Source: Schmidtea nova
Lineage: Eukaryota
Direction: 5' to 3'
DNA length: 64,000 nt
Assembly: GCA_044892505.1 (NCBI GenBank)
Contig: CM097883.1
Coordinates: 242,358,001 to 242,422,000, forward strand
A program made the translations under genes and the position numbers. The notes below the pieces were generated by a model, which saw nothing but the letters and a program-made list of their open reading frames with translations, did not search any database and was not told the origin of the DNA. Positions within the stretch are counted from its first letter, which is position 1, and every line of letters begins with the position of its first letter. Below are positions 2,814 through 27,241 of this stretch, in pieces.

Positions 2814-4190
2814 TTACGCCAACCATCCTTTTCTATCCGTTTTCTCATGCCTCTCCATTTCTATGTATAGCGTGTCTGCATATAGTCGCTCCCATAGGTT
2901 TTCTTTCCTTATGAACATTGGTTCTCCTACTGCTAGTCCGCATTCTGTTGTTGGTTTTTCACTCGTACTCGTATGTTTGTCTGTCTCGAAGAACTTTTCC
3001 ACTGGTTTTCCTATACTTTTGATTCTTATAATGACTCCTACTTTCAAGGGCCATTCTATTAGGTCATCGTATTCTCCTTTACATAACGAGAAAAATATTG
3101 ACACGTGTGTTCCTTGTCCTCTTCCGTCTTCATTTGGGTATACCTTCAATCTTATTTTGACCCCATTTTTCCATAAATAAAATGGTGGGCTTATTACTGC
3201 TGTTTTAGTCATATTTCGGGCTTCTGTTAGTTTGTCTCTGAAATCTGTTATTTTCCATAGGTAAGGTGCAATTGGTAAGTCCCTTCTTTCGTCAATTTCT
3301 CGTATTAATTGATTATATTGTATCTTCATTCCTTTTCCTAACTCCTCTATGGCTGTTATTTTCTCTTCCATTCTTTCGCGAGTTAGTTCAAACTGCTCTC
3401 TCGTTTCTAGTAATATATTTACCATTATTTTATGTGATTCCACCTCTTTTCCCAGTTTCTGGATTATCTGTTCCGTTTCTTTTGCTGCTTCGTTTGTCAT
3501 CTCCACATGTATTAGTGCTGCTTCTTCCAGATGCTGTTTCATTGTTTGCCGCGTCCGCTTTTCCTTGCATCCTTGTTTGTTATATGGACATTCTCTTGGT
3601 CTTTCGGTACATACTTTCCAATGTTCATGTAACTTTACTTCTTCTGTTATTTCGCAATTGTTTGGACATTTACTTACATATTGTCCGCATACTTTCTCTT
3701 CCGTTATATTCAAGTGTTCTTCTTCAATTTTCCTCCTTGTTTCTTGAGTTTGGCAGTATTCGCATGCGATTTCTTCTTCTTTACATTCGTCCTTGTGTTG
3801 TTCTCTCTTCTTTAGAATTATTGACTGTTGGCACTTCTCGCATTCGGTTCTTTTCTCCTCGCACTTTTCCATATGGTTTTCTAGATTACTTATTTGTCCT
3901 TGCCATGTACAAGGTGTATTTACGCACTCCGTTGTGGTGCTCATAATTTCTCTTTGGGTTGCTTTGTCCGTTCTAGTTTCGTCCAACACTATTCTTCCTT
4001 CTTTACATTCTGGGCATGTTGTTATTCCTGTTGCATCTAATTCTTGTATACACTTCTTACATATTCTACATCCACATATCGTTTGTCTGGGTTCTCGTAA
4101 TAAATTGTTACACTTCCCGCATGTGAGCCTCTTGCTCCATTTTCTGTTTTCTAGTCTCAAAATTTCGATTATTCGTTCTTCTCTGTCCAT
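2814..4190 (-). CDS. TRAF-family protein (RING, TRAF zinc fingers, coiled coil, MATH domain)
   Basis: CGKCNNLLREPRQTICGCRICKKC..CPEC RING; CTWQG..LENH..C and CPYNKQGC fingers; YLWKITDF..SPPFY..G.KIRLKVYPN..G.GQGTHVSIFF..KGEYDDLIEWP MATH signature. Confidence 0.95.
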   Translation of the reverse strand: MDREERIIEILRLENRKWSKRLTCGKCNNLLREPRQTICGCRICKKCIQELDATGITTCPECKEGRIVLDETRTDKATQREIMSTTTECVNTPCTWQGQISNLENHMEKCEEKRTECEKCQQSIILKKREQHKDECKEEEIACEYCQTQETRRKIEEEHLNITEEKVCGQYVSKCPNNCEITEEVKLHEHWKVCTERPRECPYNKQGCKEKRTRQTMKQHLEEAALIHVEMTNEAAKETEQIIQKLGKEVESHKIMVNILLETREQFELTRERMEEKITAIEELGKGMKIQYNQLIREIDERRDLPIAPYLWKITDFRDKLTEARNMTKTAVISPPFYLWKNGVKIRLKVYPNEDGRGQGTHVSIFFSLCKGEYDDLIEWPLKVGVIIRIKSIGKPVEKFFETDKHTSTSEKPTTECGLAVGEPMFIRKENLWERLYADTLYIEMERHEKTDRKGWLA

Positions 4191-4301
4191 TTTCTACAAT
4201 AATATATACTTTTCTACAATAATATATACATTCGACTTGTCATTTATTTTTGATTTTTCTTGTTTTTATTTTACATATTTACAGTTTTCCGCTTTATTTA
4301 T

Positions 4302-4679
4302 CTATGGCTCATTCGTTGAATCTGGTTCCGCTTCGTTGTTTATTCTATTTATTACCCAACTCATCCATCCTTCTTCGGATTCTTCTCCTTCCCCTCGTGT
4401 TAAATGGTTTATTTCTATTGCTTGTCTTTGATTGATATTGCTTATATTTTGATTTTCTCTGGTGAGTTCAGTTATCGTTCTTTGTTGTTCCTCTATTCTG
4501 TGTAATTGCTCGAAACAGTTGTTATAACTTTCTGATAGTAACATTTGTTTTTCCGCTAATTGGTTCTGTAATGAGTTGACTGTTCGTACTAATAAATCGC
4601 ATTGCGCTTTCCATCTCATAGCCATAGTTATTTCAGTTGTTTCGTCTTGTTCGGTCATTTTCTGAATTATATACATCAT
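4302..4679 (-). CDS. Small accessory coiled-coil protein
   Basis: 125-aa ATG ORF with heptad-like Q/L/E pattern, lying between other cargo genes. Confidence 0.65.
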   Translation of the reverse strand: MMYIIQKMTEQDETTEITMAMRWKAQCDLLVRTVNSLQNQLAEKQMLLSESYNNCFEQLHRIEEQQRTITELTRENQNISNINQRQAIEINHLTRGEGEESEEGWMSWVINRINNEAEPDSTNEP

Positions 4680-4783
4680 TTACTTTGCTTTTCTGTCTTT
4701 TTACAATTTTTATAATATCGATACCCATACTATTACGGTAATGCTTTGTTATTTACACTATTATTTACAGTCATAATCCGCCC

Positions 4784-5236
4784 CTATACCATCATTATCG
4801 TCTTTTCCTCGTATCGTTCTTCATCTTCTATTTGTTTCCAGAATTCTTTACCTTTCGTTCTTCTTTGGAATTCTTTCTGTATCTCTTTTGGTATTTCTAT
4901 TCTTTGTTTCATAATTTTAATATCTGGCCATTGTATGGCTGTCGCTTTGTTTCTCTTTTTGTATCTCCAATATACTATTATGCTTGTCGTCAGTATTCCA
5001 TATGCTATTAATATTCCTATACTAATTAATCCTATTACTGTTTTTCCACGGTTTGTTGCTTTGATTTTATTCTGATTCGCTTTTATCTCATTTTGGGTTT
5101 GAGCCTCTGGCTTCTTCTCCTTCTGCACTTGATTCTTGACTTTGTTCATTACTTCTTGTGTAGACCAATGGCGGTTTAGTAGTTGTTTGACGTCATTTTC
5201 CGTTGTCTGGTTTTCTACGCCTCCTGGTTCGATCTG
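4784..5236 (-). CDS. In-frame continuation of the 1329-aa ORF beyond TAA 5237-5239: second TM anchor and tail
   Basis: I translated 5236-5150 as 29 open codons in frame with ORF 4784-5149. HWSTQEVMNKVK and LISIGILIAYGILTTSIIVYW parallel KWTPEEVIKEVK and LIGLGILTATIPVIIALSAIW in the upstream copy. Confidence 0.8.
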   Translation of the reverse strand, partial: QIEPGGVENQTTENDVKQLLNRHWSTQEVMNKVKNQVQKEKKPEAQTQNEIKANQNKIKATNRGKTVIGLISIGILIAYGILTTSIIVYWRYKKRNKATAIQWPDIKIMKQRIEIPKEIQKEFQRRTKGKEFWKQIEDEERYEEKTIMMV

Positions 5237-8200
5237 TTACTGCAGTTTCTCTGAGATCTGATATAATCCGCATTCTGGTTTTTCTGAACCTTTTCTGGTG
5301 AAGGTACATATCGCGTATGTCCTATTTACTTCCATTTTCTTTAATTCGACTTTTTCTTTATTCTTTATTTCTTTACAGTGGGTTAGGTTGTCTTCTTCCA
5401 CTTCTGGTTTATGTTTTGTCCAACATATTCCTTTAACTGTCTGATCAAGTCCTGTTAATGTCAGAGTTCTTTCTGTTTTAATTAGTTCTTCTTCATCGAA
5501 TTTCAGAATCTCTCCTTTTCGGAATGTCTTGCAATTCTCTGTTCCGGGTTGATCCTCTTGGGTTCCTTTCTCCCATATACATATACTTCCTTCTTCGTTC
5601 ATTTGTATTTCTTGTATTTCGATTTCCTTGTTTGTTCGTGATTCGTCGCTTGTCTGAACTTGGTATTCCTTCCTTGGTTCGTTGTATGTTCCCCAGCATA
5701 GTTTGTTGCTGCTTGTTTTTCTTATTGTTATGGCCATTTGTTCTATTATTATTCCTCTGTCAAAACGTTTGGACATTGCTATTATTAACGCTATGCATAC
5801 GCACTCTTGTTGGGGTGATATTCTTTCTCTCGTGTTATTGGTGCTTCTCTCCCCTTCTCCTGGTTTATCCGTTGTGTTTCTTATCTGAGTTGCTGGTTGA
5901 TCTATTGTGTTTTTGATTTCTTTCTTTGTTGGTTTTACTCTATACCATTCAAGTCTAGGCGTTTCGTATTTTTGGCATACGACTGTCTTAGGTAGCCCCG
6001 ACTTCTTTTCCTTTCCTATTATGCATATCCGATGCATGATTCCTCTATCCATCCCTTCTATTCGTACTATATCCTGGTTGGATTTTCTGATTATGCATTT
6101 TAGTGGGTTATCTTTCCCAATTAGTTCATCCTCTCTATTCCAGCATATTTTCTCGACCTCCTGGACATTTACTATTTTTATCCCTGCTTGTAGGTTTGTT
6201 GCTTCTTCCCTATTGATTAATGTCAATATTATTGTTAGACCCAACCATTTCGAACTCTGCGGTAGGCTTCTGGTTCGCCTTTCATATTTTTTCTCTTCGC
6301 CTTTAATCTCTTTTATTTCCTTGTCTTCGTTGTTTATTCCTAGTTTTCCGCTTTTTGCTTCTTTCTTATTTGGTTCTTCTCGTGCTTTTTCTTCTAGTAT
6401 TTCTACTCCATGGCTTGTATTATCTATATTTAGCCATTGGGTTGTTGATTTTCTGGGACTTATCTTGCGTATCCATATAGCTGATAAGGCGATTATTACT
6501 GGTATGGTTGCTGTTAATATTCCTAAACCAATTAATTCTTTAATTTGTTTATTCTCGTCTGTTTGTATAGATTCGCTTTGGTTGAACATTATTCCGTATT
6601 GTCCTTTTAGTTGTCTCCTTAGTTGTTCGCGTTCCTGCTGCTTTCTTTTGACTTCTTTGATAACTTCTTCCGGTGTCCATTTTGCTTGAGGATCGGTTAT
6701 TATTTTTTCTGCGTCCATTTGTTCATTCGTTTGGCTTAGTTCCTTGAATTCGAGTTTCCTTGCTACTCCTTTTGATGTCGCGTTTGCTGGTGTATAGTAG
6801 GTTTCGCATCTTTCTTGTTGGTTTCCTAGTGCGTCCATTTTTTCTATTGTACATACTTCATACTCGCTATTAAATTGTAGTTTTTCGATCCTGATTTCTT
6901 TATTTGTTTTTCTGCACTCTCTTGATTGTCTTCTTATATGTTTCTGGACTATTATCCAACATATTTCCAATGTTTTATTCTCTATTTTCCATAATGTTAG
7001 AGTTGCTGATGTCTTTCTCTCGGGTTTTGTCGTAACTTCCTGGCTTATTGGTTGTTTATTGTTTTTAAAGGTAGTGGTGTACTTCGGTTTTCCTTTGTTT
7101 CGTTGTTTCCTTTTATTTTTCCGTGTTAACGTTTTGGTTCTTGTTCCGGATGAAGTTATATGTATTCCGCATTCTAGGTCGTTTATCGTTATCTGATCAT
7201 TTTTCTTTACCAAACATATTTCGTAGGTTTGTTTACTTTCTAACCCTTTTATTTGTATCGTTGTTGCTCCTGTGCTTGTTCGGCATTGTGGTGTCATTCT
7301 TTTATTTACTTTCTTTTCGTACTTCCTCCAGCATACTCCTTTCACATTTGGTTCTATCTCTTTTATTTCTAATGTTATGTTTACTTTCCGCTTGATTTGT
7401 TTATTTCTCTTCCTCGTTCTCCTTCTGAACTTTATTACTTCTCCAGGTTGAAATGTTTTACATTTTGTGGTACCTTTCTTGTTTGTCTCTTTTTCTAGTA
7501 GGCATAGTTTGTACGTCTTATCTGCTTTTACTTCGGATACTTTAATTACTTTATTCGTTGTTGGTTTTCGACTTTTCCTTATTTCATTTACGCCGATTTC
7601 CTCGTTATTCCTCGCCCAACATTTTATGTTAGTATTCTGTGTATCTTCTACTTCTGTTATTGTCATAGTTTCAATTTCTATTCCTTCCTCTAATCGTTTT
7701 ATTATTATTAGTATGAGTGCTAAGTATAATACTTCCATTTGGTAAGACACTCTTTCGGTTTCGTTTGTGGCAACTCTTGCTTCGGGCCTCTCTATTGTAA
7801 TTCGTATAGTTGGTGTTGTTTGCTTATCTATTGCCTGGGGTTTTTTGTTTTCTGTTCCCTGTGTCTCTGTTCTTCCACATTTTCCGATGATGTAATCTCC
7901 TTTGGGTGACTGTTGTATTGTCATGGCTGCTTTAGGTGTTTGGTATTTTGCACATGCGATTGTGTTGTGTGATCTTGGATGCTTTTGTTTTCTAACGGTG
8001 CATATTTTGTACCAGGTATTTAGATCTAGGTCGTTGATCTCTATGATTTCTTGCTCGTGTTCTGAGATTCTGCAATCCATCGGACTATTTTGTTCCGTGA
8101 TTTTGTCCTTTTTTGACCAACATACTCGTTCGATTCCTTTTGCGTTTTTTATTTGTATTATTGCCCTTTCTTCACATGTCATTCCTTGACTTGGGTTAAT

Positions 8201-9226
8201 TAACGTTAAAATCACTGTTAATAATAGTAATTCTGGTTTGAAGAATGGTTTTATGGTTGATTTATAACCTGTTCTTTGGGTGTCATTTTTATCTCCTTGG
8301 TCGTTTTTTCCTTGTTCTCCCTCTTCATCTCTTTGTTTTTCGTCTTCATTTTTCTTTTCTTCCTTGTCTCGTTTCTTGTCTTTTCTCTCGTTTTCCTCTT
8401 TATCGGGTGGTTCGTGATCGTTTGAATTTTCTGAGTTGTTATCGTCGTCACTATCTGCATTGTCATCTCCCCCTGGCTCGTCGAAAATGTCGTCCTCGAC
8501 ATTGATTTCTTCTATTAGTTTTGCATACGCTAATGTCGTTAGATTACTTGCCTCGAATTCTTGTGTTTCTACCTGCTCCGGTATTACTTTGTTAGTGGAT
8601 TTATATTCCAAGATTTCCTTTTTGGCCTTGATCCAATTGTTGATGTATGTCTTCATCAATTCTTTCCATTTGCCTGTGTATTTTTCTTCTTTCGGGCTGG
8701 TTGTGATTTTTAGATCCTTTCTTTCCATAAACATCTTCAATATCTCTGGCCATTTATATGTTATTAGGGCACTTCTTATACACCAGTTTTGGTTATGTTC
8801 TGTAAACTCATTAATCCTGAATGCTAGTTCGTTGGTATTCGGATTTATCCACGTAAGTATTGATTCTGTTAGTTCAACATTGTGCATCATTGTCAATACA
8901 CTGGGTTTCTTAATTGTTTTGGTTAGGTATTCTATTTCTTCCTGGTTTGAGACGGTTTTAATGAAATTGACCATTTCCCAATTGTGTGTTAACAATGCTA
9001 CATCCAATATTGAATTATCTTTATCTGTTTTACCTGTAAGTCCTGCACCTGCTTTATATAGTTCTTCCAACACCTTTGTTTTTGTTTTGGCCCTTGCTGC
9101 AAATATCATAAGTGTATCTCCTTTCTCGTCTATCATATTCATGTTGCTTCCGCAGTTTAGCATTACTCTTGCAATTTCCATTACTTTTCTGTCTTTGCCA
9201 TTTCGTAAAGCTCTATGTATGGGCAT
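5237..9226 (-). CDS. Ankyrin repeats, helical domain, acidic linker, then two signal-peptide-led blocks of FN3-like modules (about 7) with a TM
   Basis: MPIHRAL, KGDTLMIFAA and NSILDVAL are ankyrin-like. Repeated CW..IxxLxxxxxYxIC..C modules. Hydrophobic segments LLLLTVILTLIN, LGLTIILTLIN and a TM near 6470-6535. Confidence 0.85.
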   Translation of the reverse strand: MPIHRALRNGKDRKVMEIARVMLNCGSNMNMIDEKGDTLMIFAARAKTKTKVLEELYKAGAGLTGKTDKDNSILDVALLTHNWEMVNFIKTVSNQEEIEYLTKTIKKPSVLTMMHNVELTESILTWINPNTNELAFRINEFTEHNQNWCIRSALITYKWPEILKMFMERKDLKITTSPKEEKYTGKWKELMKTYINNWIKAKKEILEYKSTNKVIPEQVETQEFEASNLTTLAYAKLIEEINVEDDIFDEPGGDDNADSDDDNNSENSNDHEPPDKEENERKDKKRDKEEKKNEDEKQRDEEGEQGKNDQGDKNDTQRTGYKSTIKPFFKPELLLLTVILTLINPSQGMTCEERAIIQIKNAKGIERVCWSKKDKITEQNSPMDCRISEHEQEIIEINDLDLNTWYKICTVRKQKHPRSHNTIACAKYQTPKAAMTIQQSPKGDYIIGKCGRTETQGTENKKPQAIDKQTTPTIRITIERPEARVATNETERVSYQMEVLYLALILIIIKRLEEGIEIETMTITEVEDTQNTNIKCWARNNEEIGVNEIRKSRKPTTNKVIKVSEVKADKTYKLCLLEKETNKKGTTKCKTFQPGEVIKFRRRTRKRNKQIKRKVNITLEIKEIEPNVKGVCWRKYEKKVNKRMTPQCRTSTGATTIQIKGLESKQTYEICLVKKNDQITINDLECGIHITSSGTRTKTLTRKNKRKQRNKGKPKYTTTFKNNKQPISQEVTTKPERKTSATLTLWKIENKTLEICWIIVQKHIRRQSRECRKTNKEIRIEKLQFNSEYEVCTIEKMDALGNQQERCETYYTPANATSKGVARKLEFKELSQTNEQMDAEKIITDPQAKWTPEEVIKEVKRKQQEREQLRRQLKGQYGIMFNQSESIQTDENKQIKELIGLGILTATIPVIIALSAIWIRKISPRKSTTQWLNIDNTSHGVEILEEKAREEPNKKEAKSGKLGINNEDKEIKEIKGEEKKYERRTRSLPQSSKWLGLTIILTLINREEATNLQAGIKIVNVQEVEKICWNREDELIGKDNPLKCIIRKSNQDIVRIEGMDRGIMHRICIIGKEKKSGLPKTVVCQKYETPRLEWYRVKPTKKEIKNTIDQPATQIRNTTDKPGEGERSTNNTRERISPQQECVCIALIIAMSKRFDRGIIIEQMAITIRKTSSNKLCWGTYNEPRKEYQVQTSDESRTNKEIEIQEIQMNEEGSICIWEKGTQEDQPGTENCKTFRKGEILKFDEEELIKTERTLTLTGLDQTVKGICWTKHKPEVEEDNLTHCKEIKNKEKVELKKMEVNRTYAICTFTRKGSEKPECGLYQISEKLQ

Positions 9227-18200: not shown

Positions 18201-21200
18201 TTCTTTCCGTCGTTCCCGTTCTCTTTTCTCATCTTTAGCAGTTTCTCTGGGTGTATCGTCCATTCTGATAACGTGGATGGTTTGGTGATTATCCCATATA
18301 CCGATTTTATATAGTCGTCTCTCATCGTGATCCCATAATACATGTTCGTTGTATTGTATGATTATGTCGTCTTCCCATTCGTCTTCTGGTTCTCTTTGCA
18401 CTAGTGTCTCGTTGATGACATTTATTAATTCTTTAATGGTGCAATCCGCTACCACTTCAATTTCTTTGGTGTCTTCATTAGGCAATTCTACTGAAATTTT
18501 TAGATCCGTTATTTTCCCTTGTCTAAACATTATTTTTCCCATTTTTGCGATTAATTTGTCGTGTGAGATCTGTGACCATCTCGTGTGGCTTGTGTCACGT
18601 ATGCACTCAATACATCGTTTCAATTTCTCGTATTCGCTTCTCATTAACTCTTTTCTATGTTTTTTGACTTGTGGTATGATTTGTTCTATCAGGGAATTTA
18701 GATTCTTTCGTAAGACTCGTTCTTTCTCGTATTCTAACCGGGGTTTTATTCTCCTTTCGAAACACATGTTTGCTTCCTTTGCAACTTCTTGTAGGTTCTC
18801 TTCTTCTTTTTCATCACATATTGATAACAGAGTTATTTCTCCTGGCCATATACCTGTTTCCACTAAGTGCGTTCTTTTCTTTACGAGTCTATTCTGCGAA
18901 TAGATGAATTTGTTTTTATATGAGCTCCCGAGCCTGTCTTCTACCCATCTGTAGATATCATCTGTAAATGGAGTTTTGATCCAGATTCTTGGTGTAGATG
19001 TATTTATTATTATTGAGATGGTGTAATTGAGGAGTGGTTCCTCTATTAATTTCCCTACGTATCGATTTAACATGTCTACTTCTCGGTCTTGTAACCATTC
19101 TTTGTAGTTCATTTGTAATAATGCTTTCATGAATTTCCGATATTGTTTCTTGTCCATGAATTCTTCGTTATATATTACTTCTAGCGAGTTATCTAATAAT
19201 TTCTGGATTTCATCTACTTTTATCTGTGTAGGTTCTGAGGTCTTTATTACTTCTCTCTCTTGGTTTTCGTCTTCGGATTCGTTTAATATGTCTCCTGCTA
19301 GGCTACTGATGTCACTATCTTCTTCCTCATCGGAAAACTCTCTGGTGGTATTTCTTAACATATTAATATGTGCTATTTGGTTCGTTTCCCCTTGTATGTT
19401 CTCCGTTGGTTCTGGTTCGTTTTTGTCAATCTCTGATGTTGGTTCACTCTTGTCCTCTATTACTTCGACCTTTCTCATTTTCTTTTCCAACTCGTCTATT
19501 TCTTTTAAACGTCTTCTTATCATTTTTCCTTTAAATATTCGACTGATTCGGGTTTCGTGACGCACTGGTGGTGGAATTTCTTCTGGTTCTATTTCTTTAA
19601 TAATCATCACGTTTCTTTTTGTTTCTACTACTCCCATGTTTTCCCATATATCCGTTAATTCCAACTTTACTTTTGGCGCACCTTCTATTTGTAGGAACGC
19701 TTCTCTGGGCAGTTTCGTTACTCCTAGAACCATCTGGTTTACTTTGTTGAATAATATTCCCACTTCTTCTTTTACGTTATACTGGAATCTAAACACGGAT
19801 TTGTTGGGCATGATTACCATCATTCTTCTTTTCCAAATCTCCCTTTTCTCTTCCTGGTTTGTCTCAGTTTCCACTTCCTTTTCTATTTCTTTTTCTACCT
19901 CCTCATCTTTTTGTACTATCTTTTTTTGACTTTTGTTGTCGGCTGGATTCGGGTCTATCGAATTCATTTCCAGTGTGGTTTCTTTCTCGCGAGTGTCTGT
20001 TTGGTTTGTTGCTCTTAGCATGTTAATTCTTAGAGGTTGTCGCTCTCTTTCTTGCTGTTTTTGTTCATCCTCTCTTTGTATTCTTGCCCATTCCTGAGCG
20101 TGTCGTGCCTGACTTTCTCGATTCAAACGTTCGTTTTCGCTTTCTATTTTTCTCATCATGCTAATTTGCTGTTGATTGGTTTGCGGATTTCCTCTCGTCG
20201 TATTGTTTATCAGTTCCGTCAACCTTTGAACTTCTTGCATCAAATGTATTTCTTTGGGGGTGGTTTTGTTCTGATTATTGTTATTATTGACTTGTTGGTT
20301 CCCATAATCTTGTCGGTTTACGGTATTTGTTTGATTTCCGTAATTTTGTCGGTTCCCATTACTCTGCCAGTTTCCTCGCTGATTACTTTTTTGTCCGCAA
20401 TTTCTTGAATAGTGACCAGGTCGTCCGCAATTAAAACAGATTATTGTAGAACATCTACTTTCCGAATGTCCTTTAACTCCACATTTTCCGCAATTCAAAT
20501 TTTGATAGCATTCTTGTTGCCAGTGTCCCAATTTTCCACATGTTTTACATTGTCTTGTTTGTCCTTGAGGGTTGTAATTGTTTTGGTTTCCAAAGTTCTG
20601 CACTTTATTTCCTTCATTCCTTCGTTGAGGGGGTGGTCGGTTTAATTGTTGCGAATTTGGAATGTGATTGTTGAGATTTACCTGTGGTTCGGTTTGTGCT
20701 GTGTCCATGGCTAAATAAATTCTGCCCTCACTTCCTATCATATGCAATTCGAATCGGTTAGCTGTTTCTAACGCTTGATCAATGGTCTTGCATCCTTGGC
20801 ATCCAACTTGCGCTCTTATGTCAGGTCTTCTTAGTCCTCCTATGAAGATAGCTGCCATTAACTCCTCGTTTATTGGACCTCCATCCTTGAATACCGATTT
20901 TGCTAATTTTTTCAGTTCACTCGCGTATACCGCATTAGATTCATTCATCTTTTGTTTCCTCATTGAGAATTCTATGAATGCCTCGCTTAGCACTTTATTT
21001 ATTCCAAATGTTTGTTGGAAAAAATCCTTTATCGCTGTCCAGCTTGTAGGTGGATTGGTACCATTTTTCGCTTCCAAATATAGGTCCAATGCACTATCTT
21101 TCAAATATAACTGAATTCTGCTTACTGTTGTTTCCGCTTTCCATTTGCATACTTCCACGAATATGCCAAATTCCTTTAAAAAGGTTTCTAATTTACTCGC

Positions 21201-21806
21201 ATCTCCGTTAAATGGTTCTCCTGAAAATTTATCCTTTATTTCTTCTCTTGGTTCACCCATTTCAATTCCGCTGTCTTGAGTTATTTTACTTTCGTTTCCT
21301 CTGGTTTCTAGTTCGTTGTTATGTTCGTCTTCTGTTTCACTCGAGCTTGAATCGCTTTCTGTTTCTCTTATTACTTCGTTATCCGATATTATACTTTCGT
21401 TATCACTCGCGTTGATTTCTATCTCTGGTTCTACCTCGTTTTCTACTTCTTCGATATTATCGTTGTTAGTTTCGTCGATTTCTCCTTCTTGTTCTATCTC
21501 GTGTTCTATTTCCTCGATATTATCGTCGATTTCTATTTCACTTGTTTGGTTCTCCTTGGGTTCCGCATGGTTTTCTTTGTTACTTGAGCAGTTGCTTGCT
21601 ACTGATAATTTATCGTTTTCGATAATCGATTTATCTCTTATTATTCTCCTCGCTTTACTCCCTTGTGGGTTCTTGTTGTTATCTTTGCCGGCTTTCTGCT
21701 TTTTTGCTGTTTTTGTTGTAGTACTAATTTTGTCTTTTTTGTTAATATTGCTGCCGACTTTCTTTTCCGTTGGCTTTACTACGACAATCTTTGCTCCTTT
21801 TCTCAA
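9213..21806 (-). CDS. 4197-aa polyprotein: Gag, UBL array, Bcl-2-like, Env, PR, RT, RNase H, IN, ankyrin
   Basis: Single uninterrupted ORF; domains listed separately. The TTG start is assigned by the ORF track; the first ATG is at 21260. Confidence 0.96.
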   Translation of the reverse strand: MRKGAKIVVVKPTEKKVGSNINKKDKISTTTKTAKKQKAGKDNNKNPQGSKARRIIRDKSIIENDKLSVASNCSSNKENHAEPKENQTSEIEIDDNIEEIEHEIEQEGEIDETNNDNIEEVENEVEPEIEINASDNESIISDNEVIRETESDSSSSETEDEHNNELETRGNESKITQDSGIEMGEPREEIKDKFSGEPFNGDASKLETFLKEFGIFVEVCKWKAETTVSRIQLYLKDSALDLYLEAKNGTNPPTSWTAIKDFFQQTFGINKVLSEAFIEFSMRKQKMNESNAVYASELKKLAKSVFKDGGPINEELMAAIFIGGLRRPDIRAQVGCQGCKTIDQALETANRFELHMIGSEGRIYLAMDTAQTEPQVNLNNHIPNSQQLNRPPPQRRNEGNKVQNFGNQNNYNPQGQTRQCKTCGKLGHWQQECYQNLNCGKCGVKGHSESRCSTIICFNCGRPGHYSRNCGQKSNQRGNWQSNGNRQNYGNQTNTVNRQDYGNQQVNNNNNQNKTTPKEIHLMQEVQRLTELINNTTRGNPQTNQQQISMMRKIESENERLNRESQARHAQEWARIQREDEQKQQERERQPLRINMLRATNQTDTREKETTLEMNSIDPNPADNKSQKKIVQKDEEVEKEIEKEVETETNQEEKREIWKRRMMVIMPNKSVFRFQYNVKEEVGILFNKVNQMVLGVTKLPREAFLQIEGAPKVKLELTDIWENMGVVETKRNVMIIKEIEPEEIPPPVRHETRISRIFKGKMIRRRLKEIDELEKKMRKVEVIEDKSEPTSEIDKNEPEPTENIQGETNQIAHINMLRNTTREFSDEEEDSDISSLAGDILNESEDENQEREVIKTSEPTQIKVDEIQKLLDNSLEVIYNEEFMDKKQYRKFMKALLQMNYKEWLQDREVDMLNRYVGKLIEEPLLNYTISIIINTSTPRIWIKTPFTDDIYRWVEDRLGSSYKNKFIYSQNRLVKKRTHLVETGIWPGEITLLSICDEKEEENLQEVAKEANMCFERRIKPRLEYEKERVLRKNLNSLIEQIIPQVKKHRKELMRSEYEKLKRCIECIRDTSHTRWSQISHDKLIAKMGKIMFRQGKITDLKISVELPNEDTKEIEVVADCTIKELINVINETLVQREPEDEWEDDIIIQYNEHVLWDHDERRLYKIGIWDNHQTIHVIRMDDTPRETAKDEKRERERRKEVVRKLQQIVEIYRNWRIWPEWENVLEELNLNRRIRTPVEKQWNKKGKCWEPKEGEYEEEYERGMEDDCEPEMGRVCMVTRKATPIDLDGPETAAMWLEREKQKTEEFVEILKTNAHGKRKVIKGLADFFVVNGEDITCLRKVAKAIAEYKRVNEWCPEQLDHVIRKWRNQEFSQEIPQKVHLRIIYPNKDKEELWVGIAEKIRDIKKKLRYEPPFHLQHQGRSLDNSLEIGITPAQLDLMNTLTVEAIAGQPLKRKEENHKPHGSISTPSPMKSVLTPGTSSRRSETTPRGTRESTPPQPYDVDEILTDSDDMIEELTELTKEKDDNIFERIQELPTTIQVTNTGETEVEQEIIIEEVNDLTEDETRGAYAENVQLTQEMERWLEERANEPRDVTEETGRATRFVETGTGMDRRPRGRPKTDPANVVIRNKDEKRQDQWELCLRKLNKIAEIKEKETTPICQGEEWISKTIMEILAIIDPELRKYWRITEISEKAKSLHSAIAPILPEFIKEKTKSNHLDWQGTTTLIKKLTEGAETDNKYIIAIAYTIYNLLTLSRGRPKPTALERHIKNTAKIIAREIEPYVINKGGWETFIKNNQKKTQAKNMKKKFEKILEELEKEQAGTGNAKSSMNLSSIIMMMLIWMISTDSATAFEVFDCDQMKLGEKYSLRGTEQCKDATPVELQKIKKEQWYHVYQEAELIKTMVNECKVQKTRFAFYCGRGHYSAIVMPGTEREPIVLQGEDCEALFKHGEVTTRDKIKIRGKPGMMLQQTYYVAGRITGGEGYCQGETYPIFGTPATNLVVMDTYIVELKSYEAFFEPTTGEMKTLSMCKIDRSMCQTGMSTLVYKPKVNECQLQLLQGAQFDEIQGKTFQEEDDDDKARAKHLKEALENKRQLKPDHREKRIEMRATPTVLITTNQDVGMRFIKGKATLKCSTTVYETNYPGIYVSKQEVPNAKPKIDTMDIKLHLYVNNKMDFLFHRGQASLQKVYYDLINNDCILNREILKTKLAVAITNPDSAMPLLPLREGHFGRVVGEAMYVYICEKTHASLAATTQLKPGTCTNELEIDYKGKVRYVQPVTRIINPPGFEPNPFNCSNAYGPLYQKPDGKWVMFPGRAEVIAPREFELMQLSKDRQFSDVDVSNNGIYSPKDLEAARQNILFPARREALLLNIVTITGGTDYREGPNYELLLSPAHFKKATENMMKAMWGRFLIFGQMMAGILGVILIIQIVRVIITQMLACFDIYKREKKVNWKMVVGFLPFLAKTMVLHGHSKDIHRIKRLLKILAKMKGTDEEVGRKFKKIMNDEQARQQLKRERKGLWERMKGYKTQNDSSDDDDDDDDYKGGQVYKNQAPQYIEKNPADAWKCYAPPPTMYQEPLQGGKNSTMQMMPMTNVYPMIPEDYKMRRCRSVDPQGDTHTIAVMSSNTGPVLTTTIEINGREIEAMIDTGANISAIDIKWIPQEQRREIERTNVHVIACSKEIVEVAGRWWVKIRHLNTEIDTYVAVIPALSVPCIIGTDLMPALFKEIVIDLGTMRLKDRTGQICAIEAKVTSSKQMIIPARKEKICYVKIDPTIQGDMIFEPSKRFEKRKALPMARGLVNINDDGEIPINVVNFDEEDKIIYENERLGKLTPMMDIELPIEGAEKDKEPTWNIDSELLNEDQRKQLEKLMIEYKDIFAASDLDLGTCDVTLHTIPLTDETPIALRPYKLAEAQKAVAEAEVKKMLDAEVIEPSCSPWQFPVVMVKKKDGTQRFCIDYRRLNTVTKRDTYPLPDINEMLLTLQGAAYFTSLDLKSGYWQIKMKEEDKEKTAFTIGRDLYQFRKMPFGLTNAPASFQRCMNFVTHGIKQCMVYIDDLLIYSSTLEQHIQDIRDVFVRLRQWKLKLKPSKCDWAKEKVTFLGYIVSAKGKEPDPRNIDKVKECPVPKTITQIQEFLRLCGYYRKFIKDYAGIAKPIQELVKKDVSFIWGDEQQTAFETLRDKLITAPILVHPDFKKPFLLATDASGYAAGAVLGQYDDEGKERVIGYYSRTFKKHEKNYSVTEREALAIILAIKHFKYLLWGHIICITTDHQPLVWLGQHKETSSRLMRWAMQLQEYSPDIKFKSGRANANADCMSRLTFPELTDPDVQRICVLIAEDLDFSELKRDQQEDKELGQIIEFLTSRNMEVFKDNKELKEHIGKYQHRYILSKEWLLIQDGVKKLMCLPENRRKEIMIQYHDGKLGGHMSEKKTINRMRQKYYWRTMEEDIKEWIKNCLTCATRKDSGKKWKNPLQPMPIPAEPMTTIAMDVIGPLPESLNGNIYILVITDYLTKFPEAFAMQDQKAKTVAKILVEEICCRYGTPKQILTDQGTNFMSELLNEVTNYFRIAKLRTSPYHPQTNGQTERFNGTLIRMLSNYVSRHQTDWDEYIKLCLMAYRMSIHAATKLSPFQLMYGRECNMPIDLEYQPPLSQYMEDDDYVTKFKERMQEIWKTAELNIKFYQESYKDLHDQKKNVKANDLKPGDWVIIETPEIIPGTVKKLQRPGRGPYEIIYKKDNNVKVKLINRPLIRPIYVNTCRCKKVPKTITTTPENRIITRSQTARINMLRANTSEDDKAEVRQKEIRNKEIILKAREIMGRWHVKDEVGISRDIRHIISRYAQGLPTEPIISELLEKIPEILLLKDVGGQPALHNAIECKNIERAKEFLKMAKETNQNLDVGNREQETPIMTAAIHQADKEMIDLLIKAHFSWTERDREDKTVLNHVIWSSHQPMLKYIIANSTWEIDELIKGDIIKEAIKIGKCNTIRKLIKWKRPEDDTWVLDINEVYSEGQNALLRYLLKFTCDQKTLLTLLDRGNINITKNEEEHKFDKEKEALFNKIRKWCAKPLDKLITYKDINNFNEKYQTIVNEYDELVKILNHPEKCKQVLEKKERESNRKLTPLFKAEAPYQARLDAIQEKAKELLPEFENSKHALEILGALVEKVHAYAKGTYNGNDITTIKKEMPVTFFTTKGRNNAHT
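9900..10220 (-). other. Ankyrin-repeat block fused downstream of integrase (approximate bounds)
   Basis: GQPALHNAI, QETPIMTAAI, DKTVLNHVI repeats. Confidence 0.85.
10600..11600 (-). other. Integrase (HHCC zinc finger, DDE core, GPY/F motif; no chromodomain seen); approximate bounds
   Basis: YHDGKLGGH..CLTC; AMDVIGPLP; TDQGTNF; NGQTERFN; GPYEI. Confidence 0.95.
11860..13060 (-). other. Reverse transcriptase and RNase H (approximate bounds)
   Basis: YIDD at 12636-12647; TDASGYAAGAVLGQ; NYSVTEREALA; TDHQPL. Confidence 0.97.
13310..13920 (-). other. Aspartic protease followed by a degenerate dUTPase-like linker (approximate bounds)
   Basis: AMIDTGANIS (DTG at 13854-13862) and IIGTDLM. The linker IIPARKE..MIFEPS..ARGLV..IPINVVN resembles the PR-RT spacer of many gypsy elements. 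Confidence 0.85.
14200..16310 (-). other. env: Envelope glycoprotein, chuvirus/gB-like class III fusogen (approximate bounds)
   Basis: Internal signal MNLSSIIMMMLIWMISTDSATA then FEVFDC; CKVQKTRFAFYCG; LHLYVNNKMDFL; C-terminal MWGRFLIFGQMMAGILGVILII TM. These match my recollection of chuvirus-type glycoproteins. Confidence 0.8.
16415..16900 (-). other. Bcl-2-like domain (approximate bounds)
   Basis: EIEPYVINKGGWETFIK is BH2-like (compare HTWIQDNGGWDAFVE); a degenerate BH1-position helix NKYIIAIAYTIYNLL precedes it at plausible spacing. Confidence 0.7.
17450..19810 (-). other. Array of 3-4 ubiquitin-like domains with helical spacers (approximate bounds)
   Basis: LKISVELPNEDTKEIEV..CTIKEL..IIQYNEHVL..LYKIGI..TIHVI and VHLRIIYPN..KIRDIKKKL..LQHQGRSL follow the ubiquitin pattern. 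Confidence 0.65.
20396..21260 (-). other. gag: Gag capsid-like domain and three CCHC zinc knuckles
   Basis: FNGDASKLETFLKEF..LYLKDSALDLY..FIGGL; CKTCGKLGHWQQEC, CGKCGVKGHSESRC, CFNCGRPGHYSRNC. Confidence 0.93.
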
Positions 21807-22381
21807 GGGGATTACTTTTGTATACTCAATTTTCTTGTCCTATCTCTTATCGTGTTCTGATTCTTCTTGCTTGATTGATTGATTTGATTGATTTGTATAT
21901 CTAAAATACAAAGGTCCTCAACGATACATTATTGTTATCGTCGCGCTTTTATTCCCTTTCTTTCGGGATTACTTATTACTGGGTTTTCATTATTTCCCAA
22001 TTCCCAGATTCCCCTTTATTTTTAGTCTATTTAAATTATCTATAGACTGGTCACAATTATCTATTTATGTCGTAATAATTATCTATACTTTATAAATCAA
22101 TTACTTTTCCCACAGTTTCCCAATTTATTGGTCGCTCGAGCGCTCTAATTCCCTGAGTCTTTCTGACTCGTTTATCGTTATTTTATCATCTTTATTCATT
22201 ATTCCCTGTTAGCAATTGTTTTACTCATTCTGCCGGTTGCTCCGGTCAGCTCAAATCTCTACTATTCTCCTTGCATGCTTTATTTAAGGTTGCATAATCA
22301 GCTTTACTCGCATTCTCTTAACTACTAGTGCGCACTACTCTAAATCTCGTCGACGATTACACTATGGGTCTATATTCCCTC

Positions 22382-22934
22382 TGTAGTGGCACGGTTCATT
22401 CATATATTAAATTACAAAAAATTAAAAATTGTTTTGTAAAAAACTTGTTATTTAAAAATTGTAGTTTAAAAATTAATTTTATAAAAAGTTGTTTAAAACT
22501 ATCAAAAGTTGTAAATAAAAATAAATATTTGTTATCTTAATTTAAAAGTGTTTTCTTAAATGGCTTCCAGTATTTCATTCATTAATATTGAATATTTGAC
22601 ATTTAATCACTGCAAACAATCGGATTATACCAATAGCGAAGAAGTCATTCAATTACAATTCAATGATCTCTTTGGATTACTAAGAACTGAGGCCAAGCTT
22701 AATAATAATCTTTCATCAAAGGACGATTTTGAAAGGCTATTCAAAACATGGATTCCATCTGTTGATAATCAGTATGAACAGACAATTAATGAGCCATTCC
22801 ATGATGCGATTTTATTCCACAGTACTCAAAGTCGACTCAGTAGAAGTTTAACAAATTTAAAGATAAAAACAGATACTGACTCAAACATAATGCTAGAAGG
22901 TTTCGAGAAGGCGCACTACGCCCGAAACACTTCA
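22382..22934 (+). repeat. 5' LTR of the nested element (553 bp)
   Basis: Starts TGTAGTG, ends CACTTCA; its last 147 bp (22788-22934) repeat at 25585-25731 with one mismatch seen. Confidence 0.88.
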
Positions 22935-24323
22935 TTGGTGTCAGAAGTGAAAGAAAGCCACACCTCCTGGCTAAGAAAAATTGTAAGTAATTTTTATATG
23001 AGTGTAATTTTTGCCGCTCCATTGGTTCCCCCTCGCATTAGCCCAGTCCATTTAAGGGAAAACGGGACAACCACTTTCATCAATAGCCAACACACCTTTT
23101 TATCTCCTCACACTTTTATCCCTCATAAATCAGATCACGCCATCCACTTCCGTTTCGGTATGAGATTTTTCAGTGTCCGCATCTCCACACCATCTTACGA
23201 TGCATTTTCACAGGCAGTTTGCCAAATTTTTAAACAACATTCATATGATTTTTACGTCACACAAAACGGCATTATATTAAATTCTCTGTCTGACATCTCA
23301 GAGACCGTCATCGTACAAGTTAACCTAAGAGCACGGGGAGGCATGAAAGACGGGGACACGGATACCAACGACATTGAAATTCACCCACACCCATTCACGG
23401 CTCCTTCGTTCTTTCTGGACGCAGATAAATCCCCAAAAGCGTGGCTCATTTTGGTCAACATCGCACTCGAAGAAAGTGGACGTTTCACGCCCTACAAAAA
23501 ATTCTCCGCTTTAATTATATCTCTCCCAGCGGAAATCCTATCAAAAATAGCGCATCTTACCGAACAACTTAGTAACAGCACAAACCCCTATCTGGCACTT
23601 AAATCAGCCATCACCGAACTTTATCTAGAACCTGTGAAAGACGTTTTTGAACGTGTTTTCAAGGAGCAATCATTGGGATCAGACCTCCCTTCGGTTTTTT
23701 TGAAACGCTCCATAGAAAGCCTCGAACGCCTCAAAGTAGGCATCACTAAGGATGATACAGTACTCCGTCATTCTTTCCTTTCCGCACTTCCAATCCAGAC
23801 GAGAGCGATTCTTTCAGTTGCGGAAACAACCTCTTTAGACAAATTAGCGGAAATGGCCGATAAGATCTCTGCGATCTCCTTAGCACCTAAACCTTGTCTT
23901 TCCTTAACTACAGAAGCACATCCACCAGTTACATCACACTCAACGAGCACTCCCTCGACCATGATCGAAGAGAGGCTCACGGCAGCCCTCGAAAACTTAG
24001 GTAACAGACTGAGCCGTTTGGAGGACCACCAGACCAAATGCCGCAGGAAACGTTTTTTTAACAGCAAATCTCCTAAGAGAACTCCATCCGCAGGTGGTAA
24101 ACTAATTTGTCGCCTACACTTAAAATTCCAGAAAAACGCGAGATGGTGCGCAATCGGCTGCGCTTGGCGCAATCGTTCGAACGACTGCAAGAACTCAGAT
24201 GTGTGGATATACCATGACAGGTTTCGCACTGACGCAAGACGTTGCCTTCAAGGTTGCAAACATTTCACAAATTTTGCGAACCAATCATTAACCACCGAAG
24301 AATTCAACTCCTCAAAAAACTGA
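22560..24323 (+). CDS. gag: Nested Gag with an N-terminal ubiquitin-like domain ending LRARGG
   Basis: SPKAW..KKFSAL..NPYLALKSAI..FLSALP..LDKLAEMADKI; two H..F..AR.C..GC motifs; A AAA AAC slippery heptamer at 24314-24320 just before the stop. Confidence 0.88.
   Translation: MASSISFINIEYLTFNHCKQSDYTNSEEVIQLQFNDLFGLLRTEAKLNNNLSSKDDFERLFKTWIPSVDNQYEQTINEPFHDAILFHSTQSRLSRSLTNLKIKTDTDSNIMLEGFEKAHYARNTSLVSEVKESHTSWLRKIVSNFYMSVIFAAPLVPPRISPVHLRENGTTTFINSQHTFLSPHTFIPHKSDHAIHFRFGMRFFSVRISTPSYDAFSQAVCQIFKQHSYDFYVTQNGIILNSLSDISETVIVQVNLRARGGMKDGDTDTNDIEIHPHPFTAPSFFLDADKSPKAWLILVNIALEESGRFTPYKKFSALIISLPAEILSKIAHLTEQLSNSTNPYLALKSAITELYLEPVKDVFERVFKEQSLGSDLPSVFLKRSIESLERLKVGITKDDTVLRHSFLSALPIQTRAILSVAETTSLDKLAEMADKISAISLAPKPCLSLTTEAHPPVTSHSTSTPSTMIEERLTAALENLGNRLSRLEDHQTKCRRKRFFNSKSPKRTPSAGGKLICRLHLKFQKNARWCAIGCAWRNRSNDCKNSDVWIYHDRFRTDARRCLQGCKHFTNFANQSLTTEEFNSSKN
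22936..22949 (+). promoter_or_regulatory. PBS of the nested element (tRNA-Leu-like)
   Basis: TGGTGTCAGAAGTG one nt after the LTR end; matches the known tRNA-Leu PBS TGGTGTCAGAAGTGGGAT. Confidence 0.9.
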
Positions 24324-24439
24324 TCACCCCGTTTCTTCTTGCGGCAGAAGTAGGCGGTAATCATCCACACAATTTTTTTCTCAAACTCTTCTCACCTAGT
24401 TTTTCTTTTCTCTCATCTCCTTCTCTCAATTCTCCCGAA

Positions 24440-25589
24440 AATTCACTTTCTGATAGATACCGGATCGAGTCTTTCACTACTCCCCATTTCTTTCAGCGCT
24501 GATAACAACACAACTTATACACTCCGCGCTGCTAATGGCAATTACATCACAACCCGCGGTTGTCTACCAGTCACGTTCCGCATTGAGAACCTACCGGACG
24601 AGTATACTTGGACTTTCTCCATTGCCGAGATAAGCTGTCCCATATTGGGGATGGATTTCCTATCTGCCAACCATTTGTTAATAGATTGCTCGAAACACCG
24701 TCTTGCTAAATGTAACGATCCAACCCTCCCCACATCTTCTGCTATTTTGAGCACAACTCCTGATAATTCTAACACTTCACCCCATGACTCCGGTCATTCG
24801 AGATTCATCAATGAACAACTGAACCTCCACCCTCAACTATTAAAACGCTCAAATGATTCAAAATCCTCAAATCCCAGCTACTACCATAGAATTGAAACTT
24901 CTCCTTCTCTCCCTCTCCGAGAACGTTTCAGACCACTGTCAGGAGACAAACTCAATTTCCTTCGAGAAGAAATCCAAAATCTCTTAAATACTGGTGTTAT
25001 TCGACGTTCAGCCTCACCATGGGCCTCACCAGTACACATAGTTGCCAAACATGACGGTAAATTCAGGGCATGTGGGGACTATCGTCGTCTAAACGCGATT
25101 ACCATACATGATTCGTACCCCATGCCCCTCATCAATGACGTCTTATCTAGATTGTCACATGCTTCAGTTTTTTCGACACTGGATTTGGTGAAAGCATACC
25201 ACCAAATACCGGTACATGACATGGATGTGCCTAAAACTGCGATAATAACTCCCTTAGGCCTATTCGAGTATTTACGTATGCCATTCGGACTGAGGAACGC
25301 AGCGCAAACGTTCCAACGTCATATAGATGGCGTTCTTTCTAAATTAGATTTCGCCGTTGCCTACGTCGACGACATTATCGTCGGATCTTCCTCACAGGCA
25401 CAACATTACGAAGATTTACAGAAAGTTTTAGAAGCCTTAGCCAATAATAATCTTCAAATTAATCCTTCGAAATGTTGTTTCTTTCGTCCTGAAGTACAAT
25501 TTCTGGGGCATTTCGTCTCTGGGTCTGGCATCCGCCCCCTACCATCTCGGTTGAAATCCATCAATGATTTTCCTATTCCAGGAAAATGA
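24440..25589 (+). pseudogene. pol: Nested pol fragment: protease and RT, truncated
   Basis: FLIDTGSSLSLLP in frame with ORF 24645-25589; FRACGDYRRLN, LDLVKAYHQIP, MPFGLRNAAQTFQ, YVDDI. Breaks off into the 3' LTR remnant. Confidence 0.93.
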
Positions 25590-25731
25590 GCCATTCCATG
25601 ATGCGATTTTATTCCACAGTACTCAAAGTCGACTCAGTAGAAGTTTAACAAATTTAAAGATAAAAACAGATACTGACTCAAACATAATGCTAGAAGGTTT
25701 CGAGAAGGCGCAATACGCCCGAAACACTTCA
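25585..25731 (+). repeat. 3' LTR remnant of the nested element
   Basis: 147-bp copy of 22788-22934, followed by TSD CCCTC. Confidence 0.9.
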
Positions 25732-25772
25732 CCCTCTATTACTATTTATCCGGATATCTCTATAGTTCACTA

Positions 25773-26027
25773 TGGCTCTTCTGGCCTCAATTTAATATCT
25801 CAACTGGCTCTATTGGCCTTAATTAACGTCTCAACTGGCTCTATTGGCCTCAATTTTATCTCTCATACGGCTCTATTGGCCTCAATTTAATCTCTTAAAT
25901 GGCTCTATTGGCCTCAATTTAATCTCTCAAACGGCTCTATAGGCCTCAATTTAATCTCTCATATGGCTCTATTGGCCTCAATTTAATCTCTCATATGGCT
26001 CTATTGGCCTCAATTTAATCTCTCCAT
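25773..26027. repeat. Tandem array, about 8 copies of a 32-bp unit (TGGCTCTATTGGCCTCAATTTAATCTCTCATA)
   Basis: Read directly; adjacent copies with no unique spacers. Confidence 0.92.
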
Positions 26028-26066
26028 AACGCCTAGCTAGGTCATTCAATATGGCTCATTGGCCTC

Positions 26067-26300
26067 AACCCTTTTTTTCAAAGGACAAACCGCTAATAAC
26101 CCTTTGTTTCAAGGGACAAATCTCATAACCCTTTGTTTCAAGGGACAAATCTCATAACCCTTTGTTTCAAGGGACAAATCTCCCAACCCTTTGTTTCAAG
26201 GGACAAATCTCATAACCCTTTGTTTCAAGGGACAAATCTCCTAACCCTTTGTTTCAAGGGACAAATCTCCTAACCCTTTGTTTCAAGGGACAAATCTCCT
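26067..26300. repeat. Tandem array, about 8 copies of a 29-bp hairpin unit (AACCCTTTGTTTCAAGGGACAAATCTCAT)
   Basis: Read directly; each unit contains the CCCTT..AAGGG inverted repeat. Confidence 0.93.
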
Positions 26301-26779
26301 AACTTTGCTTAACCGGTTAATTATAATTCTTAACTTCGCTAGCGATTAATATTTCTCAGCTGAGTTATAACTACTTCTATGCGAGCTGACTATGCACCTT
26401 TTATTCTCTCAAAATTGTCATTTATCTCTCTATTCTATCGTGCTTATTTACTGATCAGTCTGCTTCAACTTTTTATTTATTTTTCTCTATGCGCGCTTTA
26501 CTCCATCACGATTTCCCTATCTCTCTCCCCAACCAAAATATACAAAAAGATCGCGTTGGTCCATTAATGCAGGATGTGGTGATCAATCACTTCACAAAAA
26601 CTTTCCAACATTTGCGATGGGCCCCTTTCTATACACCCTGACTAGGTTGATCAATCGGTACCTCCCAATGGATTCTTATCGGACTACTTTGTAGTAGCTC
26701 AAAAATTATTTAAATACAACAATTGTACCCATGATTTCATCATTAGTAAACCAATAAAACTCCATTTAAACATCATTTA

Positions 26780-27241
26780 TTATAAATATACAGTAATTTT
26801 ATCAGCTATTCTCAGGTCGCACATAGGACATAGGTCGCACTTGCTGGCACATATTCTACAAAAACGAAAATGTCCGCAAGGTAAAAACATAATTTGTATC
26901 TCGCTATCCTCACATATATAGCACTGTCGGTATTTTTTCGCTGCTTCTACCCCCTGCGCCCTCCATCGATTGTATGTCGGGGTTAATTGTTGTTCTATTT
27001 GCCTGCATCTAATGTTTAGCTCCGCATTTTCTAATCGTGCTCTGTACCATTTGTAGCGGGTTTTTATGTCGATTTTTCTTATTCTTTCTGTTATCTTTAT
27101 TAATTCATCCGTCTCCTCAGTCTGTGTTGTGGGTTCCTGAAATTCAATCTCTCTAAATCGGTTTATTTTCTTGCCAATCGTTTCTAATGTATCGCTTTCT
27201 GTGTTGAGAAATTCTTCGATTTCTTTCAGTTTTTCCTCCAT
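26780..27241 (-). CDS. Accessory protein with a C-terminal IAP/MDM2-type RING (probable E3 ligase)
   Basis: CYICEDSEIQIMFLPCGHFRFCRICASKCDLCPMCDLRIADKITVYL at the extreme C-terminus; helical N-terminus; no BIR domain seen. Confidence 0.9.
   Translation of the reverse strand: MEEKLKEIEEFLNTESDTLETIGKKINRFREIEFQEPTTQTEETDELIKITERIRKIDIKTRYKWYRARLENAELNIRCRQIEQQLTPTYNRWRAQGVEAAKKYRQCYICEDSEIQIMFLPCGHFRFCRICASKCDLCPMCDLRIADKITVYL

Follow-up and report, generated by a model that had tools for sequence, protein, structure and literature searches.

A Burro-type giant retrotransposon of Schmidtea nova with a loose set of conserved, putative ubiquitin-signalling and cell-survival modules

The stretch of DNA analysed here, called the window throughout, comprises 64,000 nucleotides (nt) of the Schmidtea nova genome (assembly GCA_044892505.1, contig CM097883.1, positions 242,358,001 to 242,422,000). 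Its first 29.8 kilobases (kb) are filled by a minus-strand long terminal repeat (LTR) retrotransposon, a Burro-type giant Ty3/gypsy element; coordinates below are window positions, on the minus strand unless stated otherwise. Comparison of the LTR pair places the 5' LTR at 27574..29806 and the start of the 3' LTR, which continues beyond the window, at 1..792. The LTRs are 2,233 nt long and 99.6% identical, with TG...CA termini and a 4-base-pair (bp) target duplication, CAGG, and the element measures 31.2 kb including a nested insert and about 28 kb excluding it. Just after the LTR lies a 19-mer resembling a primer-binding site (27549..27567), which we take to match tRNA-Pro; the identical word occurs in a sister family devoid of reverse transcriptase (RT). 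From 5' to 3' the element holds open reading frames (ORFs) of 153 amino acids (aa; RING), 4,015 aa, 1,329 aa, 121 and 125 aa, 458 aa (TRAF) and 353 aa. The 4,015-aa polyprotein ORF (9213..21260), which ends at a copy-specific frame break, encodes gag (20361..21260; Retrotrans_gag and two CCHC knuckles in the domain search), ubiquitin-like (UBL) candidates, a Bcl-2-like domain, env, an aspartic protease (13632..13904; Pfam), RT, RNase H and integrase (10521..13163; Pfam) and ankyrin repeats. Env, a Monjiviricetes-type fusion glycoprotein (14463..16244; Pfam E-value 6e-70), sits in frame between gag and protease. An earlier note on this DNA had described five cargo domain types (TRAF, RING, Bcl-2-like, ankyrin and UBL) inside one LTR pair, which we confirm, and had interpreted them as one coherent TNF/NF-kB/apoptosis-control kit, an interpretation that our analysis does not support.

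The 458-aa ORF (2814..4190) encodes a complete, intronless TRAF with RING, zinc fingers, coiled coil and MATH domain in canonical order, as expected from the first inspection of the window. In Pfam, MATH (E 4e-20) and zf-TRAF (E 5e-6) are matched well and the RING weakly; in the PDB, TRAF3 (E 1e-21) and the RING-zinc finger part of TRAF6 (E 5e-13) are found, with TRAF3, TRAF5 and TRAF2 as the best matches. The same four domains make up intronless host TRAFs and animal TRAF2/3/5. Identity to the intronless host frames is 24-31% over most of the length, and a protein database search with the element TRAF returned only four distant TRAFs. In a tree of 27 rows (identical rows dropped), the MATH domains of five Burro-type rows form one clade (support 99/97) apart from the host TRAFs, which fits a single capture followed by rearrangement. 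Comparing cargo with host paralogues, as had been proposed, yielded a firm element clade for MATH; its putative nearest host group has a support of 81/79. Host TRAF/MATH genes themselves are clustered at G000:C2:405-455 Mb (L169-L193), several of them having intronless full-length frames.

At the other end of the element, the 153-aa ORF (26780..27241) combines an N-terminal region of about 100 aa, belonging to no known family, with a C-terminal IAP-type C3HC4 RING (Pfam zf-C3HC4_3, E 8e-11; best PDB matches the cIAP2 and XIAP RINGs, E 4e-9). The eight-ligand RING pattern with an open frame is present in 20 of 25 rows, and conservation of the N-terminal 100 aa extends to three sister families. 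Paired indels at the end of the RING, considered as possible breaks, proved to be an alignment artefact. BIR is the domain by which cIAPs bind TRAF2 (through BIR1) and IAPs bind caspases. We found no BIR, either by Pfam or by pattern in the six frames of positions 1-30000. Since the RING ORF lacks this domain, it is neither an IAP nor the published anti-apoptotic B-IAP; of the designation 'IAP-type RING', the RING type holds and the IAP identity does not.

The Bcl-2-like helical domain (16401..16817) was approached mainly through structure prediction. Alone, it gave no Pfam match, no significant PDB sequence match and no usable match in the ESM Atlas, and a protein database search with the UBL/Bcl-2 region found nothing; a search among representative proteins gave one relative. 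The predicted model (mean local confidence, pLDDT, 68) is nonetheless matched by Foldseek in the PDB, among the matches listed, exclusively to members of the Bcl-2 family (probability 1.00, TM-score 0.5-0.67), and viral Bcl-2 proteins are its top structural matches in BFVD. At the sequence level, the segment EPYVINKGGW aligns with the BH2 of Bcl-xL, and a six-row element profile, two rows of which come from a distant family, finds Bcl-xL with E 3e-5. In that distant family the equivalent position directly before env passes the Pfam Bcl-2 cut-off. A Bcl-2 tree lends weak support (82/83) to a single element clade. We therefore predict a Bcl-2 helical fold here, and the structural check suggested in the earlier note did not overturn it. 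The domain shares with Bcl-2 family and viral Bcl-2 proteins this predicted fold and the BH2-like GGW motif, but differs in having lost the BH1 NWGR and in being embedded in a polyprotein directly ahead of env.

Four UBL candidates precede the Bcl-2-like domain in the polyprotein, and they fared unequally. UBL2 (18807..19031) is predicted to adopt a SUMO/ubiquitin beta-grasp (pLDDT about 80; Z-score 10.1, root-mean-square deviation 2.0 and 72 aligned residues against SUMO/ubiquitin). The other three were not confidently modelled. UBL3 (18261..18506) has weak Pfam ubiquitin-fold matches (E 0.08 on its own, 0.011 for a homologue), UBL4 (17448..17666) has a homologue that matches the SUMO-like PF11976 with E 5e-4, under the cut-off, and UBL1 (19593..19829; pLDDT <50) has an unsupported fold. 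In other words, of the ubiquitin-like folds claimed earlier, one is sustained by prediction, two have sub-threshold homologue matches and one is unsupported. None of the four ends in a C-terminal di-glycine, their mutual hhalign comparison gave no match (best probability 2.65%), and a PDB sequence search with the UBL alignment gave nothing significant. As for ankyrins, cluster 1 (9771..10343), located after the integrase, is of a generic kind (Pfam Ank_2, E 2e-6), and cluster 2 (8897-9226) stays under the cut-off (Ank_2, E 4e-4). Cluster 1 gave no sign of the suggested likeness to IkB, a PDB search with it returning 17 weak generic ankyrin matches, none of which is IkB.

Two outcomes that would have spoken against the reading of the earlier note, restriction of the cargo to the window copy and a ratio of non-synonymous to synonymous substitution rates (dN/dS) near 1, were both contradicted by comparison of copies. 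TRAF and RING are multi-copy in the genome, with 3,313 and 9,436 candidates, respectively, of which the 92 and 150 best-scoring were scored. No stop is found in 85 of the 92 scored TRAF matches and in 142 of the 150 scored RING matches; being lists of best scores, they favour intact copies. Twenty of the 92 TRAF loci were fetched with their flanks, 16 of them spanning RING to TRAF and 4 being interrupted or deleted inside the stretch fetched. Pairwise dN/dS, computed for each region from the window copy together with 16-20 others, is 0.06-0.16 for the parts of TRAF, 0.19 [0.11-0.31] for the RING and 0.18 for the N-terminal part of its ORF, 0.07 [0.03-0.13] for the Bcl-2-like domain, 0.13 for the ankyrins (cluster 1), 0.28 for UBL1 and 0.05 for each of UBL2-4. 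For the named cargo, bootstrap upper limits do not exceed 0.53. The non-cargo RT and env have values of 0.02 and 0.06. Third codon positions are the most variable in all 10 regions tested. Compared with sister family X, the cargo shows a proportion of non-synonymous differences (pN) of 0.14-0.37 and of synonymous differences (pS) of 0.53-0.80; silent sites have almost saturated, and cargo identity is still 42-73%. Judging from these substitution patterns, the cargo is kept by purifying selection.

The composition of the cargo was followed through five sampled Burro-type families. Family X has the layout of the window element. In family Y, MATH lies inside the polyprotein, as it also does in an unnamed protein, P0005. 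Family V consists of gag-UBL-Bcl-2-env plus RT-integrase, with no TRAF or RING match in the stretches read. In a distant family (L209/L212), a frame of about 3,070 aa encodes gag-UBL-Bcl-2-env, RT-integrase follows in a separate overlapping frame, and the Bcl-2 domain passes the Pfam cut-off. Family Z, the RT-less one, has a RING ORF, a UBL-protease-ankyrin ORF, a TRAF and a separate 389-aa BIR+RING IAP; no gag, env, RT or integrase matches and no Bcl-2-like domain were detected in it. The BIR search of the genome gave 1,295 candidates, 150 of which were scored. A TRAF lies directly upstream in 8 of 10 fetched BIR loci, and 5 of 6 BIR loci read upstream have the Z layout. LTR pairs of family Z are 99.5-99.8% identical in all four tested, a 4-bp duplication and the primer-site word of the window being present in the one checked. 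The cargo of family Z has dN/dS of 0.09-0.35 (4-13 rows; two BIR rows represent the same locus), and by this measure the family retains a true BIR-IAP under purifying selection although it lacks RT. It is a young, non-autonomous Burro-type family of 25.8 kb with 4.3-kb LTRs, exemplified by G000:C1:569565771-569591573 (L149, L150, L132, L133); further loci are L118/L119/L136, L122/L123/L139, L124/L125/L144 and L151. TRAF or MATH, the RING ORF and ankyrins co-occur in four of the five families. Since the set varies among sister families, the cargo looks like shuffled modules rather than a fixed kit.

On balance, we consider it probable, from sequence comparison, that the cargo works as loosely assembled modules for ubiquitin signalling and cell survival, rather than as one NF-kB pathway, and that it helps to keep host cells alive. 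If so, the protease of the element would cut the giant polyprotein, freeing a piece with the UBLs and the Bcl-2-like domain and another with the ankyrins, and the TRAF, RING and 353-aa (ORF353) proteins would be made from their own short ORFs, whose starts are preceded by acceptor-like AG contexts. The TRAF might serve as an adaptor or E3 ubiquitin ligase in host TRAF survival signalling; host TRAFs are described in PMC7586133 as required for cell survival in S. mediterranea. The BIR-less RING could be an E3 ligase whose own N-terminal region selects the substrates; host Bcl-2-family or other signalling proteins could be the partners bound by the Bcl-2-fold domain. The net result would be a lower risk of death, before new copies integrate, for a cell in which gag, env and RT are expressed.

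Several observations weigh against such a role. Constraint is equally strong outside the named cargo, in the linker at aa 1275-1470 (dN/dS 0.11) and in ORF353 (0.08), so that selection points to use but does not tell one use from another. Moreover, choosing the 20 copies among the top TRAF scores biases TRAF dN downwards, and the pairwise dN/dS values are not phylogenetically independent. The only cargo with a published anti-apoptotic effect, BIR plus RING, is missing from the family of the window, and any survival effect here must therefore come from other modules. The Bcl-2-like domain is itself open to question: all Foldseek E-values of its model are above 0.001 (about 1e-3), hhalign of the domain alone against Bcl-2 profiles gives probabilities of 41% and 13%, the BH1 position reads TDNKY instead of NWGR, and the alignment used for modelling had five rows from the Pfam-positive distant family, which may bias it toward a Bcl-2 fold.

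The kit proposed in the earlier note, in its strong form, would have TRAF and RING pair like TRAF2 and cIAP and the ankyrins stand in for IkB to block TNF/NF-kB signalling. It could draw on the nearest PDB relatives of the two proteins (TRAF3/5/2 and cIAP2/XIAP) and on the joint occurrence of TRAF or MATH, RING ORF and ankyrins in most of the families sampled. However, recruitment of cIAP to TRAF2 uses BIR1, the very domain missing from the element, and IkB is absent from the ankyrin matches of cluster 1. Nor do the modules always travel together, as no Bcl-2-like domain was detected in the RT-less family, which has TRAF, RING and ankyrin, and the family with the 3,070-aa frame has Bcl-2 with no TRAF or RING matches in the stretches read. 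NF-kB orthology is itself unclear in planarians, PMC13563047 stating that clear NF-kB orthologues have not been identified in S. mediterranea. We consequently regard a single NF-kB-blocking kit as unlikely. Somewhat better placed, if still doubtful, is the idea that the cargo serves the particle cycle or immune evasion and not survival, with ligases and UBLs directing how particles assemble and bud or how restriction factors are removed, and with the Bcl-2 fold acting as an interaction scaffold. Several poxviral Bcl-2-fold proteins are plain interaction scaffolds. The UBLs and the Bcl-2-like domain lie in frame between gag and env, where they would be packaged or cut alongside, and the lack of di-glycine ends, the degenerate BH1 and an env that is strongly constrained and apparently exchanged between families agree with this idea. 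It is at odds with the selection acting on TRAF, RING and ankyrin in a family having no gag, env or RT, and with the survival effect reported for a related cargo, the Burro1 B-IAP (PMC13465017).

That the host-like domains are mere neutral passengers or chance resemblances is, in our opinion, highly improbable. It would accommodate the Bcl-2-like and UBL regions, which have no significant sequence match on their own, as well as the three UBL candidates that escaped confident modelling. Yet dN/dS far below 1 both within and between families largely refutes it, the domains stay conserved between families that have almost saturated at silent sites, and the TRAF and RING matches are highly significant.

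The cargo types, and the idea of their connection to apoptosis and ubiquitin, are already published for Burro elements. PMC6431247 lists MATH_TRAF_C, BIR, ankyrin, BCL2-like and Ubi2/SUMO-like domains and an in-frame env among the features of Burro and proposes interference with host apoptosis and ubiquitination. Burro1/GYPSM1 and Burro2-4 of S. mediterranea, as well as the Burro-like element of Dugesia tigrina, are presented there as having a length of about 30 kb and a huge polyprotein with gag, Ubi2/SUMO-like and BCL2-like domains, in-frame env, protease-RT-RNase H-integrase and ankyrins, all of which the window element resembles. According to the same source, MATH/TRAF cargo of known Burro elements resides in the polyprotein or in an accessory ORF, upstream in D. 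tigrina, whereas the window has a complete separate TRAF downstream of the polyprotein. It differs further in that its polyprotein lacks MATH, BIR is absent and up to four UBL candidates are present, and the joined frame of its family reaches about 5,490 aa against the 4,873 and 5,140 aa given for Burro in PMC6431247. BURRO1 expression is treated in PMC8532177. The report of anti-apoptotic cargo that the earlier note mentioned does exist: PMC13465017, citing Lee et al. 2026, credits the Burro1 B-IAP with protecting stem cells. That protein and the RING ORF of the window have in common an element-borne IAP-type RING and a suggested role in guarding host cells against apoptosis, but B-IAP is described in PMC13465017 as BIR plus RING and the window ORF is RING only; in family Z the BIR+RING gene stands beside a separate homologue of the window RING ORF. 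Because BIR is present only in another family, the window element is of the Burro type but is not Burro1. No primary paper describing Burro families without BIR or without RT came up in our literature search, although Lee 2026 and Grohme 2018 may cover both. What we add are per-cargo estimates of selection, fold support for the Bcl-2-like domain and one UBL, and the absence of a BIR-IAP from the window family. Should the survival role be true, giant retroelements, like large DNA viruses, would gather several host regulators of cell death and ubiquitin, and such elements could influence how well stem cells survive in an animal capable of regeneration.

The RT-less BIR-IAP family is one lead worth following, and exchange of env is another. 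Between the window and one copy of family X (L204), env differs at 28% of silent sites, compared with 53-84% in the other 17 regions, its protein is 98% identical, and across 16300-14300 the identity of the DNA rises abruptly from 0.67-0.76 to 0.87-0.96. The low silent divergence and the identity step point to a recent exchange of env with this sister family, which we consider likely. One may speculate further that Burro families divide their labour. Autonomous families with env, such as that of the window, would be equipped with a TRAF, a RING devoid of BIR and a non-canonical Bcl-2, and would swap env through recombination. The 26-kb satellite family Z would be a helper-dependent 'survival cassette' that earns its copying through the survival of the host cells it shares with them, and the BIR-less RING would represent a new type of element-encoded E3. 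We put this forward tentatively, as a scheme with perhaps less chance of being right than wrong by a wide measure.

The window copy is itself defective: its frame is broken near 9245, a premature stop lies near 5237, and a gypsy element is nested in its leader. In other copies the polyprotein and the 1,329-aa ORF (5237..9226) share one frame (18 of 18 copies spanning the junction, uninterrupted there in 17), which in the seven copies with a visible end continues beyond the junction for about 1,477 codons, making up the total given above. Besides ankyrin cluster 2, the 1,329-aa ORF contains an acidic stretch, weak FN3-like matches and a hydrophobic segment, and copy comparison indicates that the 121-aa ORF (4784..5149), also with a hydrophobic segment, is likely the C-terminal tail of the polyprotein severed by the early stop. 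In 5237-8200 and 4784-5149, the hydrophobic segments together with the FN3-like matches, which stay under the cut-off (E 0.0025), suggest that this tail may be a second membrane protein besides env. On the plus strand, 22382..25731 holds an internally deleted Ty3/gypsy element with a 553-nt LTR, TG...CA termini, a CCCTC duplication and gag, protease and part of RT. This 3.35-kb antisense stretch is found in none of the 16 other copies spanning RING to TRAF; it was rejected as cargo, being an insertion private to the window copy. Its family is represented at other places in the genome by full copies (L215-L217). A second TRAF 13.9 kb upstream was likewise rejected as a true tandem copy: the 13.4-kb repeat of the 3' half of the element just upstream has no substitutions and abuts a run of 500 N, and is therefore likely a scaffolding overlap.

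Two accessory ORFs complete the element. One, of 125 aa (4302..4679), belongs to no known family and is conserved in two sister families; the other is ORF353 (1639..2700), which is coiled-coil-like. Between the RING ORF and gag, the leader holds two tandem arrays (25772-26303; eight units of 32 nt and eight of 29 nt) that differ in length among copies. A hydrophobic motif recurs at seven places of the polyprotein, including ahead of the ankyrins and ahead of the integrase, and counts in favour of the proposed release of cargo pieces by the protease. Finally, a small helical domain before UBL4 (17680-17920, polyprotein aa 1113-1194) is modelled with confidence (pLDDT 71-84) and is conserved in families X, Y and Z and in protein P0005.

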